Under the pieces are notes generated by a model. The model saw nothing but the letters and a program-made list of their open reading frames with translations, was not told the DNA's origin and did not search any database. The translations under genes were made by a program, and so were the position numbers. 64,000 bases of DNA, taken from assembly GCA_902600485.1 (NCBI GenBank), contig CACKJD010000005.1, forward strand, positions 15,905-79,904, given 5' to 3'. Positions 1 through 24,595 of the stretch are shown piece by piece; positions within the stretch are counted from its first letter, which is position 1, and each line of letters begins with the position of its first letter. Source of the DNA: an uncultured Pelagibacteraceae bacterium. Lineage in GTDB: Bacteria; Pseudomonadota; Alphaproteobacteria; Pelagibacterales; Pelagibacteraceae.

Positions 1-660
1 TCACCAAGTATCAATGGAAAAATTAGAGATCTTAAGGAAAGAGGTTGTGAAAATTTAATAGTATTACCTCTTTATCCTCAATATGCATCACCTACAACCG
101 CAACTGTTTGTGATGAAGTATTTAGATCTTTAATGAAATTGAGATGGCAGCCGAGTCTTCAAATTGTATCTCACTATGAGGAAAATCCCCTTTATATTGA
201 TGCAATTGTTAATTCTATAAAAAAAAAAATTTCAGAAATAAATTGGAAACCAGACTTAATTGTTGCATCGTATCACGGAATACCAAAGAAATATTTTGAT
301 AAAGGTGATCCATATCACTGTTATTGTATGAAAACTACGAGGCTTTTAAAAGAAAAATTTAATAGCATTGAAATTATGACAACATTTCAATCAAGGTTTG
401 GCCCACAGGAATGGCTAACGCCTTATACAGACAAAACGTTAGAAGAAATTCCAAAACAAGGTAAAAAAAATATATTAGTTATTTGCCCTGGCTTTGCCTC
501 AGATTGTGTAGAAACATTAGAGGAAATAGCGATACAAGGAAAAGAGTCTTTTGTTGATGCTGGCGGTGAAAATTTCGATCTAATACCGTGTTTAAACGAT
601 AATGAAGATCATATAAATTTACTAAAAAATTTAGTGGACTCATACTTGGTAAGGAAATGA
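1..660 (+). CDS. hemH: Ferrochelatase (5'-partial; frame open from base 1)
   Basis: Frame 1 reads SPSI...LPLYPQYAS...; contains SYHGIP, FQSRFG..W..PYT and PGF.SDCVETLEEI ferrochelatase motifs. Confidence 0.95.
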   Translation, partial: SPSINGKIRDLKERGCENLIVLPLYPQYASPTTATVCDEVFRSLMKLRWQPSLQIVSHYEENPLYIDAIVNSIKKKISEINWKPDLIVASYHGIPKKYFDKGDPYHCYCMKTTRLLKEKFNSIEIMTTFQSRFGPQEWLTPYTDKTLEEIPKQGKKNILVICPGFASDCVETLEEIAIQGKESFVDAGGENFDLIPCLNDNEDHINLLKNLVDSYLVRK

Positions 661-1097
661 ATATTTACTTAATTTTAAAATCACTACATTTGATAGCGGT
701 AATTTCTTGGATGGCTGGACTTTTATATTTACCGAGAATTTTTGTATATCATTCTGAAAATAAATTAAACAACGACATATCTGGAGTTTTTAAAATAATG
801 GAAAGACGCCTATATTTTTACATTATGTATCCAGCAATGTTATTATCTTGGATTTTTGGAGTATCAATTATTCACTTTCAAGGAATAGAATTATTAAAGG
901 CTAAATGGTTTTTGATAAAAATTATCGCTGTGATAATTTTAACAGGCTATCATTTTTATCTTGGACATTGTTTAAGATCATTTAATCAGGATCTAAATAA
1001 TAACAGCCCCAAATTTTTTAGAGTAATTAATGAGATTCCTACAATTTTACTTATATTGATAGTCTTTTTGGCGATTTTAAAGCCTATGTGGGGTTGA
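657..1097 (+). CDS. hemJ: Protoporphyrinogen IX oxidase HemJ (membrane)
   Basis: KSLHLIAVISWMAGLLYLPRIFVYH signature; follows hemH. Confidence 0.9.
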   Translation: MNIYLILKSLHLIAVISWMAGLLYLPRIFVYHSENKLNNDISGVFKIMERRLYFYIMYPAMLLSWIFGVSIIHFQGIELLKAKWFLIKIIAVIILTGYHFYLGHCLRSFNQDLNNNSPKFFRVINEIPTILLILIVFLAILKPMWG

Positions 1098-1149
1098 AAA
1101 ATTCATAATAATGATTATATTTAAATTATCTTAATTAAAATTCCCTTTA

Positions 1150-2421
1150 ATGAAAATCGAAGAACTTAAAAAAAACCCCCCGGCGCAGCTTATTACGCAA
1201 GCAGAAAAGCTTGGAATAGAAAACGCCAGTACTTTAAGAAAACAAGAAATTTTATTCGCTATACTTAAAAAACTTGCTGAAAAAGGCGAGGAAATAACTG
1301 GTATGGGTGTTTTACAATTATTACAAGATGGTTTTGGTTTTCTCAGAGCATTAGAATCAAATTATTTACCAGGAGCGGATGATATTTACGTTAGTCCAAG
1401 CCAAATAAGGAAATTTGGTCTTAGAACCGGAGACACCGTAGAAGGTCCTGTGAGAGCTCCTAAAGAGGGTGAAAGATATTTTGCTCTATTGCAAGTAAGC
1501 AAAATTAATAATGAAGATCCAATGAAATCCAGACATAAAATTGCTTTTGATAATTTAACACCGCTTTATCCAAACAAACAATTAGTTATGGAAGTAGAAA
1601 ATAACAAAATAGAGAAAAAACCAGACTTAACTTCAAGATTGATAGATTTAGTAAGCCCCATTGGAAAAGGTCAAAGATCATTAATTATCTCTCCTCCTAA
1701 GGCAGGAAAAACCATGATACTTCAAAGTATTGCAAACTCAATAACAGCAAATCATCCTGAGTGTTCATTAATGGTATTATTGATTGATGAGAGACCAGAG
1801 GAAGTTACAGACATGCAAAGAACAGTCAAAGGAGAGGTTATCAGCTCAACCTTTGATGAACCAGCTCAAAGACACGTTGCTGTAGCAGAAATGGTAATAG
1901 AAAAAGCCAAAAGGCTAACGGAGCATAAAAAAGATGTGATTATATTGCTAGATTCCATTACTCGTTTAGGAAGAGCATATAATGCGGTTGTCCCAAGCTC
2001 AGGAAAAGTTTTAACAGGAGGTGTTGATGCTAACGCTCTTCAAAGACCAAAAAGATTTTTTGGTGCTGCAAGAAATATTGAAGAGGGAGGATCATTAACA
2101 ATTATAGCCACAGCATTAATTGATACTGGAAGCAGAATGGATGAAGTAATTTTTGAAGAATTTAAAGGAACAGGTAACAGTGAGACTATACTAGATAGAA
2201 AAATTTCAGAAAAAAGGATCTTCCCAGCTATAGATATAACTAAATCAGGTACAAGAAGAGAAGAATTATTATTTGATAAAAACGATCTTCAAAAAATGAA
2301 TGTTCTAAGAAGAATTATTGCCCCAATGGGATCAATGGATGCTATTGAGTTTATAAATTCTAAATTAAAGGCTACAAAATCTAATACAGAATTTTTTAAT
2401 TCAATGAATAAGCCAGCTTAA
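1150..2421 (+). CDS. rho: Transcription termination factor Rho
   Basis: [35 protein letters not shown] motifs. Confidence 0.98.
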
Positions 2422-2491
2422 GCTGGAAATCTTCACATCAAATCTTAAAATTATTTATGTTCTTTAAAAATTCACATTATATACTCAAGTA

Positions 2492-3823
2492 ATGACGATT
2501 TTTGCACTATCTTCAGCACCAGGACAATCAGGAGTGGCTGTATTTAGAATTTCAGGTCCAGAAACAGGTAATATTATTAAATTAATAACGAACAAGGATT
2601 TACCATCTCCTAGAAAAGCAAGGCTGCTAAAAATAAACAATATCAACAATTCTAGCTTAATAGATGAAGGTATAATTTTATGGTTTCCTGCCCCAAATAG
2701 CTACACAGGTGAGGATATGGCAGAACTTCATGTTCATGGAAGCAGGGGTGTAATTAAAGAAATACAAAACAACCTTTTGAGTACAAAAAAATGTAGAATG
2801 GCAGAGCCAGGAGAGTTTACTAAGATAGCCTTCGTTAACGGTAAAATAAACTTATTAAAAGCAGAAGCAATAGGAGATTTAATAGCCGCTGAAACACAAA
2901 TTCAGATTGATCAAGCACAAAGTATTATAAGAGGAAAAAGTTTTTTAAAATTTGAAAAAATTAGAGAAAAAATTATTAAAATATTAGGGACTATGGAAGC
3001 TAAAATTGACTTTCCCGAAGATGATATTCCTGAAAATGTGACCACAAATATAAAAAATGAAGTCGAGAATATCGAAATAGAAATAAAAAAGATTCTTGAT
3101 GACAATAAAGTAGGTGAGAAGATTAGGACTGGTTTTAAAATTGCTATTGTTGGTCCACCGAATTCAGGAAAATCAAGTTTAATGAATTACTTTTCGAAAA
3201 GAGATGTTTCAATTGTTTCTGAAATAGCTGGCACAACTAGGGATGTTTTAGAAACCCATTTAAACTTTGATGGATACCCAGTTACAATTTCAGATACTGC
3301 AGGTATTAGGGAGTCAAAAAATATAATAGAGAAAGAAGGTATAAAATTAGCGTTTAAAAAAGCAGAGGAAGCGGATCTAAGAATAGTAATAATAGAGCCA
3401 AAAAATGTTGAATTCTTTGGTTTTTTGAATGATTTATTCGATAAAAGCTCAATTTTATTAGTTAATAAAACAGATTTATATGATTTTAAAGTTCCTGAGC
3501 AATTAAAAAAATATAATCCTTTTCTTATATCTGTTCTTAAAGAAACCAATATTGATAAAGTAATATCAGAAATCAAATATATTTTAAAAAAATCATTATA
3601 CACAAGTACAGATGTTTTTATTACTAGAGAACGTCACAGGATTGATTTAAATAATTGCATCCTTTCTTTACAAGATTTCAAAAATAAAAATTTAAATGAA
3701 GAATTTGATAAAGCTACAGAGGATTTAAGAGTTGCTGTAAGAAATTTAGGTAAGGTTGTCGGAAAAGTTGATGTAGAGGAGATTTTATCGAGTATTTTCA
3801 ATGATTTCTGTATAGGTAAATAA
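2492..3823 (+). CDS. mnmE: tRNA modification GTPase MnmE
   Basis: TIFALSS, GPPNSGKSSL, GTTRD, DTAG, C-terminal FCIGK. Confidence 0.97.
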   Translation: MTIFALSSAPGQSGVAVFRISGPETGNIIKLITNKDLPSPRKARLLKINNINNSSLIDEGIILWFPAPNSYTGEDMAELHVHGSRGVIKEIQNNLLSTKKCRMAEPGEFTKIAFVNGKINLLKAEAIGDLIAAETQIQIDQAQSIIRGKSFLKFEKIREKIIKILGTMEAKIDFPEDDIPENVTTNIKNEVENIEIEIKKILDDNKVGEKIRTGFKIAIVGPPNSGKSSLMNYFSKRDVSIVSEIAGTTRDVLETHLNFDGYPVTISDTAGIRESKNIIEKEGIKLAFKKAEEADLRIVIIEPKNVEFFGFLNDLFDKSSILLVNKTDLYDFKVPEQLKKYNPFLISVLKETNIDKVISEIKYILKKSLYTSTDVFITRERHRIDLNNCILSLQDFKNKNLNEEFDKATEDLRVAVRNLGKVVGKVDVEEILSSIFNDFCIGK

Positions 3824-7219: not shown

Positions 7220-8058
7220 TAGGATTTAAAAATAAAAAAGGACTTGGTAGGGGCTTATCATCTTTAATTGGAGAAGGTAAATTTGCAGAGAGCACTAAAG
7301 CTAATATAAGTGATCTTAAAAGAAATAAATACCAACCGAGAAAAAAGTTTGATGAAACAAGCTTAGAGGAATTAACAGAATCTATAAAATCAAGAGGAAT
7401 TATTCAGCCAATAATAGTTAGAAACTCTAATACAGACATCAAATACGAAATTATTGCAGGTGAAAGAAGATGGCTTGCTGCACAGCGAGCTGGGTTACAT
7501 GAAGTACCAATTGTTGTTATAGAGGCAGATGATAAAAAAGCATTAGAGTTTGGAATAGTTGAAAATGTTCAAAGACATGACTTGAATGCAATAGAAGAAG
7601 CAGAAGGTTATAAAAGACTTATTGATGAATTTTCTTATGATCAAGAACAAGTTGCCAAATTTATAGGGAAAAGCCGAAGCCACATAACAAATTGTTTAAG
7701 ATTGTTAAGCTTACCTGTTGAACTTATTGAATTTGTTAAAGATAACAAAATATCCCCAGGTCATGCAAAAATCCTGGTTGGTCTGGAAAATTCTATTTTT
7801 ATTGCAAAAAAAATAATTTCTAAGAGATTGTCTGTTAGACAAGCTGAAACTTTAGTAAAAGCTTATAAAGCTCCTAGTAAAAAACATATAATCAAAAAAG
7901 ATCCTAACATAAAGGTTTTAGAGCATAATCTAATGGAAAAAATTGGTATGAATATTGAGATAAAGAATAAAAAAAATAATAAAGGATCAATAACTTTTCA
8001 TTATAAAGAATTAGATCAATTAAATAGAATTATAGAGTCTATAAAAAAGAGTTATTAG
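7216..8058 (+). CDS. parB: Chromosome partitioning protein ParB
   Basis: GLGRGLSSL, QPRK.F, IIAGERRW.AA, ENVQR.DL, HTH. Confidence 0.97.
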   Translation: MIGFKNKKGLGRGLSSLIGEGKFAESTKANISDLKRNKYQPRKKFDETSLEELTESIKSRGIIQPIIVRNSNTDIKYEIIAGERRWLAAQRAGLHEVPIVVIEADDKKALEFGIVENVQRHDLNAIEEAEGYKRLIDEFSYDQEQVAKFIGKSRSHITNCLRLLSLPVELIEFVKDNKISPGHAKILVGLENSIFIAKKIISKRLSVRQAETLVKAYKAPSKKHIIKKDPNIKVLEHNLMEKIGMNIEIKNKKNNKGSITFHYKELDQLNRIIESIKKSY

Positions 8059-22495: not shown

Positions 22496-23265
22496 TTAAA
22501 GTTCAATACATCTCGCATTGAATAAAGGCCTGGTTTCTTCTTCATCAACCACTTTGCTGCGGTTAAAGCACCTTCAGAGTACAAGGCTCTATCAAACGCT
22601 TCATGATTTAAAGTTATAATTTCTTTGCCGCTAGAAAATTTTACCTCATGTTCACCAACTACTTCACCTTTTCTCATCGAATTAAAATTTATTTTTTTTC
22701 CGTAAGGAAAAGATTTTTTATTTAGATATTTTTTTCCAATCAATCTATTTAGATCTTTATTCTTCCCTATAGCTATTCCTTTTCCAAGCATTAAAGCTGT
22801 GCCAGACGGGTGATCTTTTTTATGTTTATGATGAATTTCAAAAACTTTACTCAAAAAATTGCTTCCAAGAGATTTGGAGGTAATTTCTGTTAAATACATT
22901 AATAAATTAATACCTAAGCTCATGTTTCCAGCTTTTAATATTGGAATTTTTTTAGAATATTTTTTTATTGTATTTTCCTGATTTTTAGTAAAACCAGTAG
23001 TACCTATAACAACCCTTTTTTTTAATTTTGAGGCAATTTTAAGGACTTCCAGAGTACATTTAGGTACTGTGAAATCTATAATGACATTAGTTTTTTTGAA
23101 AGAATTAACGTTATTAAATTCGGGTAAAACATTATTTATTTTTCTATTAATTTTAAAGTTTTCTGTGAGCGAAACTAACTTGAAGTTTTTATTTTTATTT
23201 GAAGATTTAATAAGCTGTTGTCCCATTCTTCCCATGCAGCCTGTTATAGTTAAATTTATTTTCAT
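22492..23265 (-). CDS. dapB: 4-hydroxy-tetrahydrodipicolinate reductase
   Basis: Start reassigned to MKINLTITGCMGRMG; IDFT, VIGTTG, EIHH.HKKD.PSGTA. Confidence 0.95.
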   Translation of the reverse strand: MKINLTITGCMGRMGQQLIKSSNKNKNFKLVSLTENFKINRKINNVLPEFNNVNSFKKTNVIIDFTVPKCTLEVLKIASKLKKRVVIGTTGFTKNQENTIKKYSKKIPILKAGNMSLGINLLMYLTEITSKSLGSNFLSKVFEIHHKHKKDHPSGTALMLGKGIAIGKNKDLNRLIGKKYLNKKSFPYGKKINFNSMRKGEVVGEHEVKFSSGKEIITLNHEAFDRALYSEGALTAAKWLMKKKPGLYSMRDVLNFK

Positions 23266-23278
23266 ATAAAGATTTTGT

Positions 23279-23293
23279 TGATAATGATTATCA
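23279..23293. promoter_or_regulatory. Classical Fur box 1
   Basis: Perfect 7-1-7 TGATAAT-G-ATTATCA; 16/19 to GATAATGATAATCATTATC on the minus strand (23280-23298). Confidence 0.7.
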
Positions 23294-23339
23294 TTCATAA
23301 AGATTTTTTTAAAGAGATGTTTTTAATTGGTTTTTTTGT

Positions 23340-23358
23340 GATAATGATAATCAATATT
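23340..23358. promoter_or_regulatory. Classical Fur box 2
   Basis: GATAATGATAATCAATATT, 17/19 to the classical consensus. Confidence 0.7.
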
Positions 23359-23404
23359 ATACGTTATTTCTTGAATAATTTTTTTTATTTCTTATCTTCA
23401 ATTT

Positions 23405-23584
23405 ATGCAAACCCAAAAATTTAGTTGTAAAAAATGTGGATTAACGATTTCATCAGTATGTTCTAAATGCGATAGAGTTGTTGATGTAAAATTGCTTGAT
23501 AGCGGATGTTTAGTTCAAGTAACTAAATGTGGCGACTGTTCAAGTGTTCCAGTTATTAAAGATATCTGCACAGAAAATAATTAA
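23405..23584 (+). CDS. Cys-rich small protein, 59 aa, three CxxC motifs (not in ORF track)
   Basis: Hand translation MQTQKFSCKKCGLTISSVCSKCDRVVDVKLLDSGCLVQVTKCGDCSSVPVIKDICTENN*. Confidence 0.75.
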   Translation: MQTQKFSCKKCGLTISSVCSKCDRVVDVKLLDSGCLVQVTKCGDCSSVPVIKDICTENN

Positions 23585-23591
23585 TTAATAT

Positions 23592-23759
23592 TTATAATAC
23601 AAAATATATAAATATTAATATTATAGCTATCACTATAATCCATATTGAGAAATTCTTAATTAATATCTTCAAGTTATAATTGGTTTGAATAAAACCGGGT
23701 AGTACCAATATTAGAACACCTATTAATGCTATTACCGGGACAATAACTTCAAGACTCAT
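23592..23759 (-). CDS. Small two-TM membrane protein, 55 aa (not in ORF track)
   Basis: Hand translation MSLEVIVPVIALIGVLILVLPGFIQTNYNLKILIKNFSIWIIVIAIILIFIYFVL*; starts 2 nt after the upstream stop. Confidence 0.7.
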   Translation of the reverse strand: MSLEVIVPVIALIGVLILVLPGFIQTNYNLKILIKNFSIWIIVIAIILIFIYFVL

Positions 23760-23761
23760 AA

Positions 23762-24595
23762 CTATTTTACCTTAATACTTTTATGAAATAAAAAAAAGTT
23801 TTGTGATCTATCCTGAAGTTTTTTTACAAAATTTTCAATATTAAAAATTCTTTTTAAATTTTCGTCGAAAAATAAATAATCTAAATCTTTTTTAATATAA
23901 TTTATCAAATTTTCTGGTGTGTATCCAAATTCCTTATATAAATAAGGAGCAAATTCAAAATATATGAAGGGTTTGTGTTTCATAATTGTTGTTTTACCAC
24001 TTTTTAATACATCTAGTTCATATCCATCTACATCAATTTTAATGAGGTCAATATTTTGAAGTTTTGAGCAAATTTGATCAAGTTTTTTTGTTTTTAATGA
24101 TGTTTTCTTTAAAATACCCAAATGAACCTTGTGTTTTTTACCACTATCTAAAAAATTCCATGATGAATGAACTTCCTTGGTTATTTTTTTTTTATTTGAA
24201 ATAAAAATATTTTGAAGGATAATTCTTTTTTTTAAATAAGGATTTAAATTTACATTTTTCTTTAGTTTAGAAAATGCATATACTGTTGGTTCAATAGAAA
24301 TTATTGTAGAATTTTTAAATGTTTTTGCTAATGGAAGGGATACAGAACCTATATTTGCACCAATATCAATTATTGTTTTTTTTTTGTTAATATTCATAAT
24401 TTTATCTATATTTAAAATAGAAGCCTCATTGCTTATACCAAGAAAAATTCCTAGGTCGATGCCTTCTCTAAGATTAATACAATAATTAATATTATTTCTT
24501 TTTATTATCTTGCTTTTGTCTCCAAGAAAGAAAACCAAAAGATTACTTATTAATGATGCACACTTAATTTTCAATTTTGTTGATAAAGATATCAT
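23762..24595 (-). CDS. FkbM-family SAM-dependent methyltransferase
   Basis: IIDIGANIG, IEP, IKIDVDGYELDVL. Confidence 0.88.
   Translation of the reverse strand: MISLSTKLKIKCASLISNLLVFFLGDKSKIIKRNNINYCINLREGIDLGIFLGISNEASILNIDKIMNINKKKTIIDIGANIGSVSLPLAKTFKNSTIISIEPTVYAFSKLKKNVNLNPYLKKRIILQNIFISNKKKITKEVHSSWNFLDSGKKHKVHLGILKKTSLKTKKLDQICSKLQNIDLIKIDVDGYELDVLKSGKTTIMKHKPFIYFEFAPYLYKEFGYTPENLINYIKKDLDYLFFDENLKRIFNIENFVKKLQDRSQNFFLFHKSIKVK

Follow-up and report, generated by a model that had tools for sequence, protein, structure and literature searches.

A conserved eight-cysteine microprotein gene of SAR11 bacteria with its own Fur boxes and a predicted leaderless mRNA

Does a short, cysteine-rich open reading frame (ORF) that lies behind two Fur-type operators in a SAR11 genome encode a protein, and are those operators its own? 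SAR11 bacteria rank with the most numerous organisms of the sea, large regions of which are iron-limited. The locus lies in a 64,000-nt stretch of Pelagibacteraceae DNA, here called the window, and comprises a 59-codon ORF with two upstream boxes:

23405-23584, + strand: microprotein gene, stop codon included (ATG start, 59 aa, from the ORF listing)
23280-23298: distal Fur box GATAATGATTATCATTCAT, centred 116 nt upstream of the ATG (three mismatches to the 19-mer; PWM score 21.4)
23340-23358: proximal Fur box GATAATGATAATCAATATT, at -65 to -47 from the ATG (two mismatches to the consensus)

Coding status and genomic contexts

The 59-codon ORF is a genuine, strongly conserved SAR11 (Pelagibacter) gene. 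Its product in the ORF listing of the window, MQTQKFSCKKCGLTISSVCSKCDRVVDVKLLDSGCLVQVTKCGDCSSVPVIKDICTENN, has the cysteine layout C8-x2-C11-x7-C19-x2-C22-x12-C35-x6-C42-x2-C45-x9-C55, and ORF and pattern agree exactly with a preliminary description of this DNA, which had also judged such spacing unlikely to arise by chance. That judgement holds: among 325 stop-to-stop segments of 40-120 aa in the six frames of the window, the micro-ORF alone has more than one CxxC motif (it has three), and segments with at least three averaged 0.015 per shuffled window (200 shuffles). Homologues with the same CxxC spacing, on which the preliminary description let its proposal depend, were found in a protein search that returned 45 clusters with the eight cysteines conserved throughout; across 44 sequences each of the eight is at least 90% conserved. 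A scan with one genome per species placed relatives in at least 343 genomes, and the best 80 of these are all from Pelagibacteraceae.

Substitution patterns are those of a protein-coding sequence. Pairwise dN/dS is ~0.10 for the ORF, pN/pS exceeds 1.5 in both other frames, and entropy by codon position is 0.93 at third positions versus 0.30 at first and 0.17 at second positions. TGT and TGC are exchanged for one another at all eight cysteine codons, and every one of 160 loci has an ATG start, with the first cysteine seven codons later. The gene had been called hidden, which is true only of the ORF track used for the preliminary description; the exact 59-aa protein has already been gene-called on at least 1,000 public contigs, under the NCBI name 'hypothetical protein', and is uncharacterised, not undiscovered. 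Its tryptic peptides are LLDSGCLVQVTK, CGLTISSVCSK and CGDCSSVPVIK.

The genomic settings of the gene are diverse. It is found in about ten main flanking-gene arrangements, in all of which the downstream gene is convergent. Near-identical copies of the window's locus, where the neighbours are dapB, dnaJ and dnaK, occur in Pelagibacteraceae single-cell genomes, and this dapB arrangement accounts for 17 of 161 loci. Upstream of it in 82 loci are katG and an Asp/Asn-hydroxylase-like gene, and in the remaining loci DUF3833, UPF0047 or other genes. Whatever the setting, the order of elements is the same: one to three Fur boxes, TTGAA at -34, a 16-nt spacer, TAnTTT at -12 and the ATG. Because boxes and promoter are kept in about ten contexts, the operators belong to the micro-ORF and not to dapB.

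The commonest home (L069, L081, L120 and ~80 others; positions about 20-3700) consists of katG, the Asp/Asn beta-hydroxylase-like (Fe/2OG-type) gene, a gap of 360-380 nt that holds the Fur cassette, and the micro-ORF, with a convergent downstream gene for a peroxiredoxin or an SH3-domain protein. It is a neighbourhood of iron enzymes and peroxide defence.

Synteny also decides against dapB as the regulated gene, and with it against the explanation that the boxes serve dapB or are chance matches in AT-rich DNA, with the ORF being non-coding or spurious and perhaps a Fur-regulated small RNA. The arrangement in the window could suggest as much, since the boxes there sit between the micro-ORF and the divergently oriented dapB, whose longest reading frame reaches the distal box. 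Yet dapB is the upstream gene in those 17 loci only, and the boxes accompany the ORF in every other context. The difference between in-frame dN/dS (~0.10) and off-frame pN/pS (>1.5), the conservation of every cysteine codon with synonymous changes and the lack of an Rfam match likewise speak against this explanation, to which we attach very little probability.

Several features of the window's own arrangement are recorded here. The longest dapB frame (- strand) starts at an ATG at 23298, inside the distal box; the conserved dapB N-terminus, MKINLTITGCMGRMG, starts at 23265, which is the likelier true start, and public gene calls for dapB range from 257 to 268 aa. The convergent ORF of 55 aa (23592-23759, - strand) encodes a small protein with two hydrophobic stretches (MSLEVIVPVIALIGVLILVLPGF...) that belongs to no Pfam family; restricted to the dapB-context clade, the ORF is conserved and intact in 15 of 17 genomes of that clade, the window included. 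Between this ORF and dnaJ lies an FkbM-type methyltransferase gene (PF05050; 23762-24595, - strand), which looks like a variable insertion, since only some otherwise syntenic genomes have it.

Fur boxes, predicted promoter and transcripts

The Fur boxes are specific to the cassette. In the window they begin 125 and 65 nt upstream of the micro-ORF and are the sole matches in 64 kb to the classical 19-mer GATAATGATAATCATTATC, which comprises two overlapping 7-1-7 repeats, at three mismatches or fewer, a count of two that was reached in 0 of 100 window shuffles. Tandem Fur-type operators had been claimed for this locus and are borne out, and homologues keep upstream boxes within SAR11. At least one box (five mismatches or fewer, inside 170 nt) is present in 160 of 160 loci; the proximal box, which lies at a fixed -64/-65 from the ATG throughout the genomic contexts, is within five mismatches of the classical consensus in 119 of 160, against a background in both cases of 1.2e-4 per position. 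Across SAR11 loci this 19-bp palindrome spans -64 to -46 and has the consensus GAGAATGATwATCATTCTC. Of 160 loci, 111 have a further box ahead of the proximal one, offset by 30, 50 or 60 bp and often separated from it by an A8 tract, and some cassettes have a third at -151. A position weight matrix (PWM) derived from the boxes found 277 boxes in cassettes and, elsewhere in 929 kb of SAR11 DNA, only six, all of them third boxes at -151.

The heptamers TGAnAAT/ATTnTCA are common to these boxes and to the SAR11 futA/sfuC boxes, ATTGATAATCATTCGCAAT and ATTGAGAATAATTCTCATT (Hogle et al. 2016, Data Set S3; PMC4771312), and sfuC rises 16-fold under iron limitation in SAR11 culture (Smith et al. 2010; PMC2864753). 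The heptamers held in common with an iron-responsive gene point to Fur as the likely binding protein at the microprotein boxes. Since the gene keeps its own Fur sites wherever it sits, it is likely to be a second member of SAR11's very small iron regulon. The futA/sfuC loci themselves (L176, L180, L187, L202, L212, L218) have two adjacent 7-1-7 boxes at ~-67 to -30, followed by a leader with a strong Shine-Dalgarno (SD) motif, and a conserved element, CTGCGACAnnATATGCGA, lies just upstream of these boxes.

Conservation across loci was used to place the promoter elements of the microprotein gene:

23371-23376, + strand: predicted -35 element TTGAAT (TTG at -36 to -31 in 160 of 160 loci)
23393-23398, + strand: predicted -10 element TATCTT, 16 nt past the -35 and 6 nt before the ATG

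Across loci the -35 core reads TTG(A/T)A at -34, and the -10 consensus TAnTTT occupies -12 to -7. Among unique upstream sequences, T is found at -34 in 97%, A at -11 in 85% and T at -7 in 86%, and TAnnnT occurs within -14 to -6 in 144 of 160 loci. The base preceding the ATG is a pyrimidine in 89% of sequences (T in 72%). A generic scanner applied to the micro-ORF region reported no + strand promoter and no canonical terminator. The promoter of a SAR11 rubrerythrin gene (L210), TTGACT-16-TATCTT, has a -10 hexamer identical to that of the microprotein gene.

As the predicted -10 ends 6 nt before the ATG, transcription would start at or beside the A of the start codon (~23405), and the mRNA is probably leaderless. 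This layout would account for the missing SD motif: none was seen on inspection of the sequence upstream of the micro-ORF, in agreement with the preliminary description. Taken alone, the absence is weak evidence for a leaderless mRNA, because SD-like 4-mers are rare window-wide; they precede the first ATG in 6 of 40 window ORFs of at least 200 aa, a rough figure based on mechanical starts, which fits weak SD usage in the source genome. A comparison between genes says more: clear SD motifs (AAGGA, AAAGGAG) are present at SAR11 futA and at the genes of a sister family described below, and none is present at the microprotein gene.

Metatranscriptome assemblies from several studies include contigs over the micro-ORF, as assembled sequence with no strand or read ends. 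In four metatranscriptomes from one study, contigs extend from 26-71 nt inside the ORF to ~60 nt past the stop, and the box and promoter region is uncovered. One metatranscriptome contig on the window spans 23394-23594 and starts 11 nt upstream of the ATG. Both this start and the uncovered promoter agree with a leaderless mRNA; contigs that continue across the intergenic region also exist, and these may stem from carried-over DNA. A further predicted structure of the window adjoins the stop codon on its 3' side:

23584-23619, + strand: 13-bp A/U hairpin (fold of 23536-23710, -30.1 kcal/mol, z = -2.75)

The hairpin is specific to the window's clade and might, tentatively, be a 3' structure shared with the convergent gene for the 55-aa membrane protein. 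Rfam returned no match on 23200-23900. Run X9, a marine metatranscriptome, has a stack of 32 short contigs at 23536-23705, with a summed word depth of ~400-1000 versus 0-5 over the body of the micro-ORF and dapB. The stack takes in ~49 nt at the 3' end of the micro-ORF, the spacer and two-thirds of the convergent 55-aa ORF, counted from that ORF's 3' end. Its source could be a small RNA present in abundance, a stable fragment of a 3' end or the mRNA that encodes the small membrane protein.

Protein family and predicted metal sites

Similarity to zinc ribbons, rubredoxins or metallothioneins had been put forward for the microprotein, and no such family model matches it in Pfam, NCBIfam or the PDB. 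For the window protein the best E-values were 0.33 in Pfam and 0.41 in NCBIfam, neither of them significant; relatives and the family profile reached Pfam E-values of at least 0.0007, short of the gathering thresholds, and Metallothio_Pro (PF02069) and Fer2_BFD (PF04324) were absent from Pfam matches up to an E-value of 10. A profile search of the PDB gave a best E-value of 0.028, for a spurious match. AlphaFold2 models were all-beta with short strands at low confidence (pLDDT 51 with a shallow alignment and 55 with 108 sequences), and Foldseek on the better of these low-confidence models found nothing with an E-value below 3, the top match being the two-zinc protein YfgJ (E-value 3.3).

Relatives outside SAR11 are numerous. 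Searched exhaustively with a profile, 1.8 billion representatives gave only 54 matches, the distant ones belonging to a sister family of ~63 aa that hhalign relates to the SAR11 family with a probability of 97.9% and an E-value of 4.6e-13. A joint profile of the two families recovered at least 3,427 clusters from marine Flavobacteriaceae, Alphaproteobacteria and Gammaproteobacteria, all 'hypothetical' and with no Pfam domain. By these profile comparisons, the microprotein is the SAR11 branch of a large, uncharacterised superfamily of ~63-aa cysteine-rich proteins. The sister-family motif is MxTYxCxKCGMSVNATCGKC..PL.N..L.LDDG..VQISKCPxC/H.GKIKSPxCCGxDMxC, with C8, C11, C19, C22, C42 and C55 in common with SAR11; C35 is SAR11-specific, and the sister family has instead a CC pair and a C-terminal cysteine.

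Part of the sister-family sequences replace C45 with a nearby histidine. Such a Cys/His exchange is metal-ligand behaviour and gives the best argument for metal binding over structural disulfides. Together with the conservation of all eight cysteines, it sustains the earlier suggestion that the protein has thiols enough for two metal sites, and a two-site metal-binding protein is the most reasonable reading of these sequences.

Like the SAR11 gene, the sister genes are small, terminal and convergent with a neighbour, but they differ in control: they have a strong SD (AAAGGAG) and no Fur box, and neither Pfam nor NCBIfam has a model for them. Their neighbourhoods are variable, uninformative and free of Fur boxes. 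Since sister genes have an SD and no Fur boxes, Fur control and the probably leaderless layout would be SAR11 innovations; Fur control is specific to SAR11 and not a trait of the wider protein family. JGI labels on the sister family (L161-L165, L286-L293, L374-L381) are inconsistent (RpoP, SIR2 deacetylase, serine protease, aminopeptidase) and evidently mis-annotations.

Proposed iron control and comparison with known systems

We propose that the gene travels as a self-contained regulatory cassette of one to three Fur operators and a sigma-70-type promoter, TTGAAT-16-TATCTT, whose -10 would end 6 nt before the invariant ATG and yield a leaderless mRNA. The product would be a cytoplasmic 59-aa protein with an all-beta, double-zinc-ribbon-like arrangement, in which the eight cysteines would form two Cys4-type metal sites for Zn or Fe. 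Fe(II)-loaded Fur would bind the operators and set transcription by the iron status of the cell. In our preferred reading Fur would repress, the microprotein would be made when iron is scarce, and its role would be that of a small, metal-binding regulator or adaptor in iron sparing rather than that of an enzyme. We assign this proposal as a whole (a Fur-repressed leaderless cassette, a two-site metal protein and an iron-sparing regulator or adaptor) a probability of about 0.5. We have fair confidence in three of its parts, namely that Fur binds the operators and couples transcription to iron, that the mRNA is leaderless and that two metal ions are bound. The cellular role is conjecture, the candidates being an iron-sparing regulator or adaptor, an iron buffer or chaperone, and an electron carrier.

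Repression, with expression at low iron, is in our estimate about as likely as not or slightly better, ahead of activation. The term metal-limitation protein, proposed in the preliminary description, would fit repression and may turn out to be the reverse of the truth. Fur is mostly a repressor, and most of its direct targets are repressed. The box centres, at about -55 and -85 to -115, lie wholly upstream of the predicted -35, a position that makes activation by Fur possible as well as repression. The sole known SAR11 Fur target, futA/sfuC, is repressed, being 16-fold up in low iron (PMC2864753), and in Synechocystis multiple Fur boxes accompany strong induction by iron starvation (PMC8634477). 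In one SAR11 genome a Fur-like box precedes the -35 of the rubrerythrin gene (L210), and iron limitation slightly induces the rubrerythrin gene of HTCC1062, by 1.57-fold (PMC2864753). The microprotein gene is not among the 23 HTCC1062 transcripts induced by iron limitation (PMC2864753). No HTCC1062 orthologue was found among the best 80 loci of each of two protein scans, and the gene's absence from the induced list is therefore uninformative.

Were Fe-Fur bound upstream of the -35 to activate instead, the microprotein would be produced under iron-replete conditions and would itself contain iron, in two rubredoxin-type Fe(Cys)4 centres or an Fe-S cluster; it would carry electrons, or buffer or chaperone iron for a cell with no ferritin. 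The position of the boxes, entirely upstream of the predicted -35, is what this reading expects: in Caulobacter, sites upstream of the -35 belong to Fur-activated iron-using genes and overlapping sites to repression (PMC2724300). The promoter that defines this position was itself placed by conservation, however, and at L210 a rubrerythrin box is also upstream of the -35 although the HTCC1062 rubrerythrin gene is 1.57-fold induced, not repressed, under iron limitation. Box spacings in multiples of 10 bp (30, 50 and 60), as face-of-helix dependence predicts, the iron enzymes KatG and the Fe/2OG-type hydroxylase-like protein as commonest neighbours, and the missing entry in the HTCC1062 iron-limitation-induced list (PMC2864753) would also suit activation. 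P. ubique has no known iron-storage genes (PMC1698941), which would leave room for a buffer, but two Fe per 59 aa would make poor storage. Given also the general prevalence of repression among direct Fur targets, we regard activation, jointly with an iron-protein product, as unlikely, though deserving more weight than the other alternatives. We judge it improbable that a different member of the Fur family (Zur, Mur, PerR or Irr) occupies the operators and that the signal is zinc, manganese or peroxide rather than iron. Fur-family boxes are alike and the metal specificity of a homologue is unreadable from sequence (PMC4771312), katG and a peroxiredoxin gene occur in the commonest contexts, and Zur control of a cysteine-rich Zn protein would make sense; but the boxes fit the classical iron-Fur 19-mer and have heptamers in common with the iron-responsive SAR11 futA/sfuC boxes, and the Irr (ICE) motif, TTTAGAA-n3-TTCTAAA, differs from them.

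The microprotein gene is in neither published list of SAR11 Fur targets. For P. ubique, reconstructions in the literature gave one Fur-regulated operon, fbp/sfu (PMC1698941), and a later survey found one Fur box per SAR11 genome, always ahead of iron transporters (PMC4771312). A second clade-wide Fur target would enlarge this minimal regulon, and its transcript or protein would serve metatranscriptomics and metaproteomics as a compact gauge of SAR11 iron status. It would likewise provide a first way into the function of a superfamily of at least 3,400 clusters without a Pfam entry, and confirmation of the leaderless mRNA would make the gene a concrete example of such initiation in SAR11. A more far-reaching idea, which we consider doubtful, is that the leaderless Fur-controlled microprotein is a protein-based master switch or buffer of SAR11 iron homeostasis. 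It may then be a holo-Fur-activated Fe(Cys)4 iron buffer or chaperone, or it may be a low-iron-induced zinc-ribbon factor that reprogrammes the translation or mRNA stability of iron-rich enzymes, in which case it would do the job that RyhB-type sRNAs do elsewhere. In either form, SAR11 would have recruited a widespread housekeeping microprotein family into its Fur regulon.

Our preferred reading, that of a Fur-repressed iron-sparing regulator or adaptor, has a functional counterpart in FbpA, FbpB and FbpC of Bacillus subtilis, which are Fur-regulated, basic small proteins that act as iron-sparing co-factors of the sRNA FsrA. They are likewise small, directly controlled by Fur, iron-sparing and not enzymes, but they are not cysteine-rich and their sequences are unrelated to the SAR11 protein. 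A role in RNA regulation such as theirs would, for the SAR11 protein, be pure conjecture by analogy. The microprotein may be compared with double zinc ribbons and rubredoxin-like knuckles (E. coli YfgJ, PDB 2JNE; Pfam DZR and Zn_ribbon_6), which likewise have paired CxxC(G) knuckles; it also has ligands enough for two metals and a low-confidence prediction as a small all-beta protein. Neither the top Foldseek match to YfgJ (E-value 3.3) nor the Pfam E-values (at least 0.0007) are significant, and the microprotein is at most a candidate member of these families.

Operators upstream of the -35 are known from another alphaproteobacterium. In Caulobacter crescentus, the Fur boxes of nuoA, sdhC and acnA are so placed (PMC2724300); these Fur-activated genes encode large iron-using enzymes and have mapped starts, whereas the SAR11 promoter is a prediction. 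The SAR11 rubrerythrin gene at L210 (~7830-7960, - strand) has, in this order, a Fur-like box, an Irr/ICE-like palindrome (TTTAGAAcgaTTCTAA), the clear promoter TTGACT-16-TATCTT and an SD. This combination suggests dual Fur/Irr input, where Rodionov et al. predicted control by Irr only (PMC1698941).

The closest parallel in size and regulation is IsiE of Synechocystis sp. PCC 6803/6714 (Riediger et al. 2021, PMC8634477), a protein of 59 aa with seven to eight cysteines and CxxC-type motifs that belongs to the Fur regulon, was missed by annotation and is of unknown function. IsiE is encoded inside the isiABC operon, whereas the SAR11 gene is monocistronic with its own operators. IsiE homologues were collected from upstream of isiB in cyanobacterial genomes (n = 9), the isiB loci having been fetched with a flavodoxin bait and the matches confirmed by tblastn at 68-78% identity; their core, CxCC..LLRH..YWYCxxCRQ, corresponds to a single ribbon. 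Homology was rejected, hhalign giving a probability of 0.1% for these nine homologues against the SAR11 family. On this comparison, IsiE and the SAR11 microprotein are analogues by convergence, not homologues.
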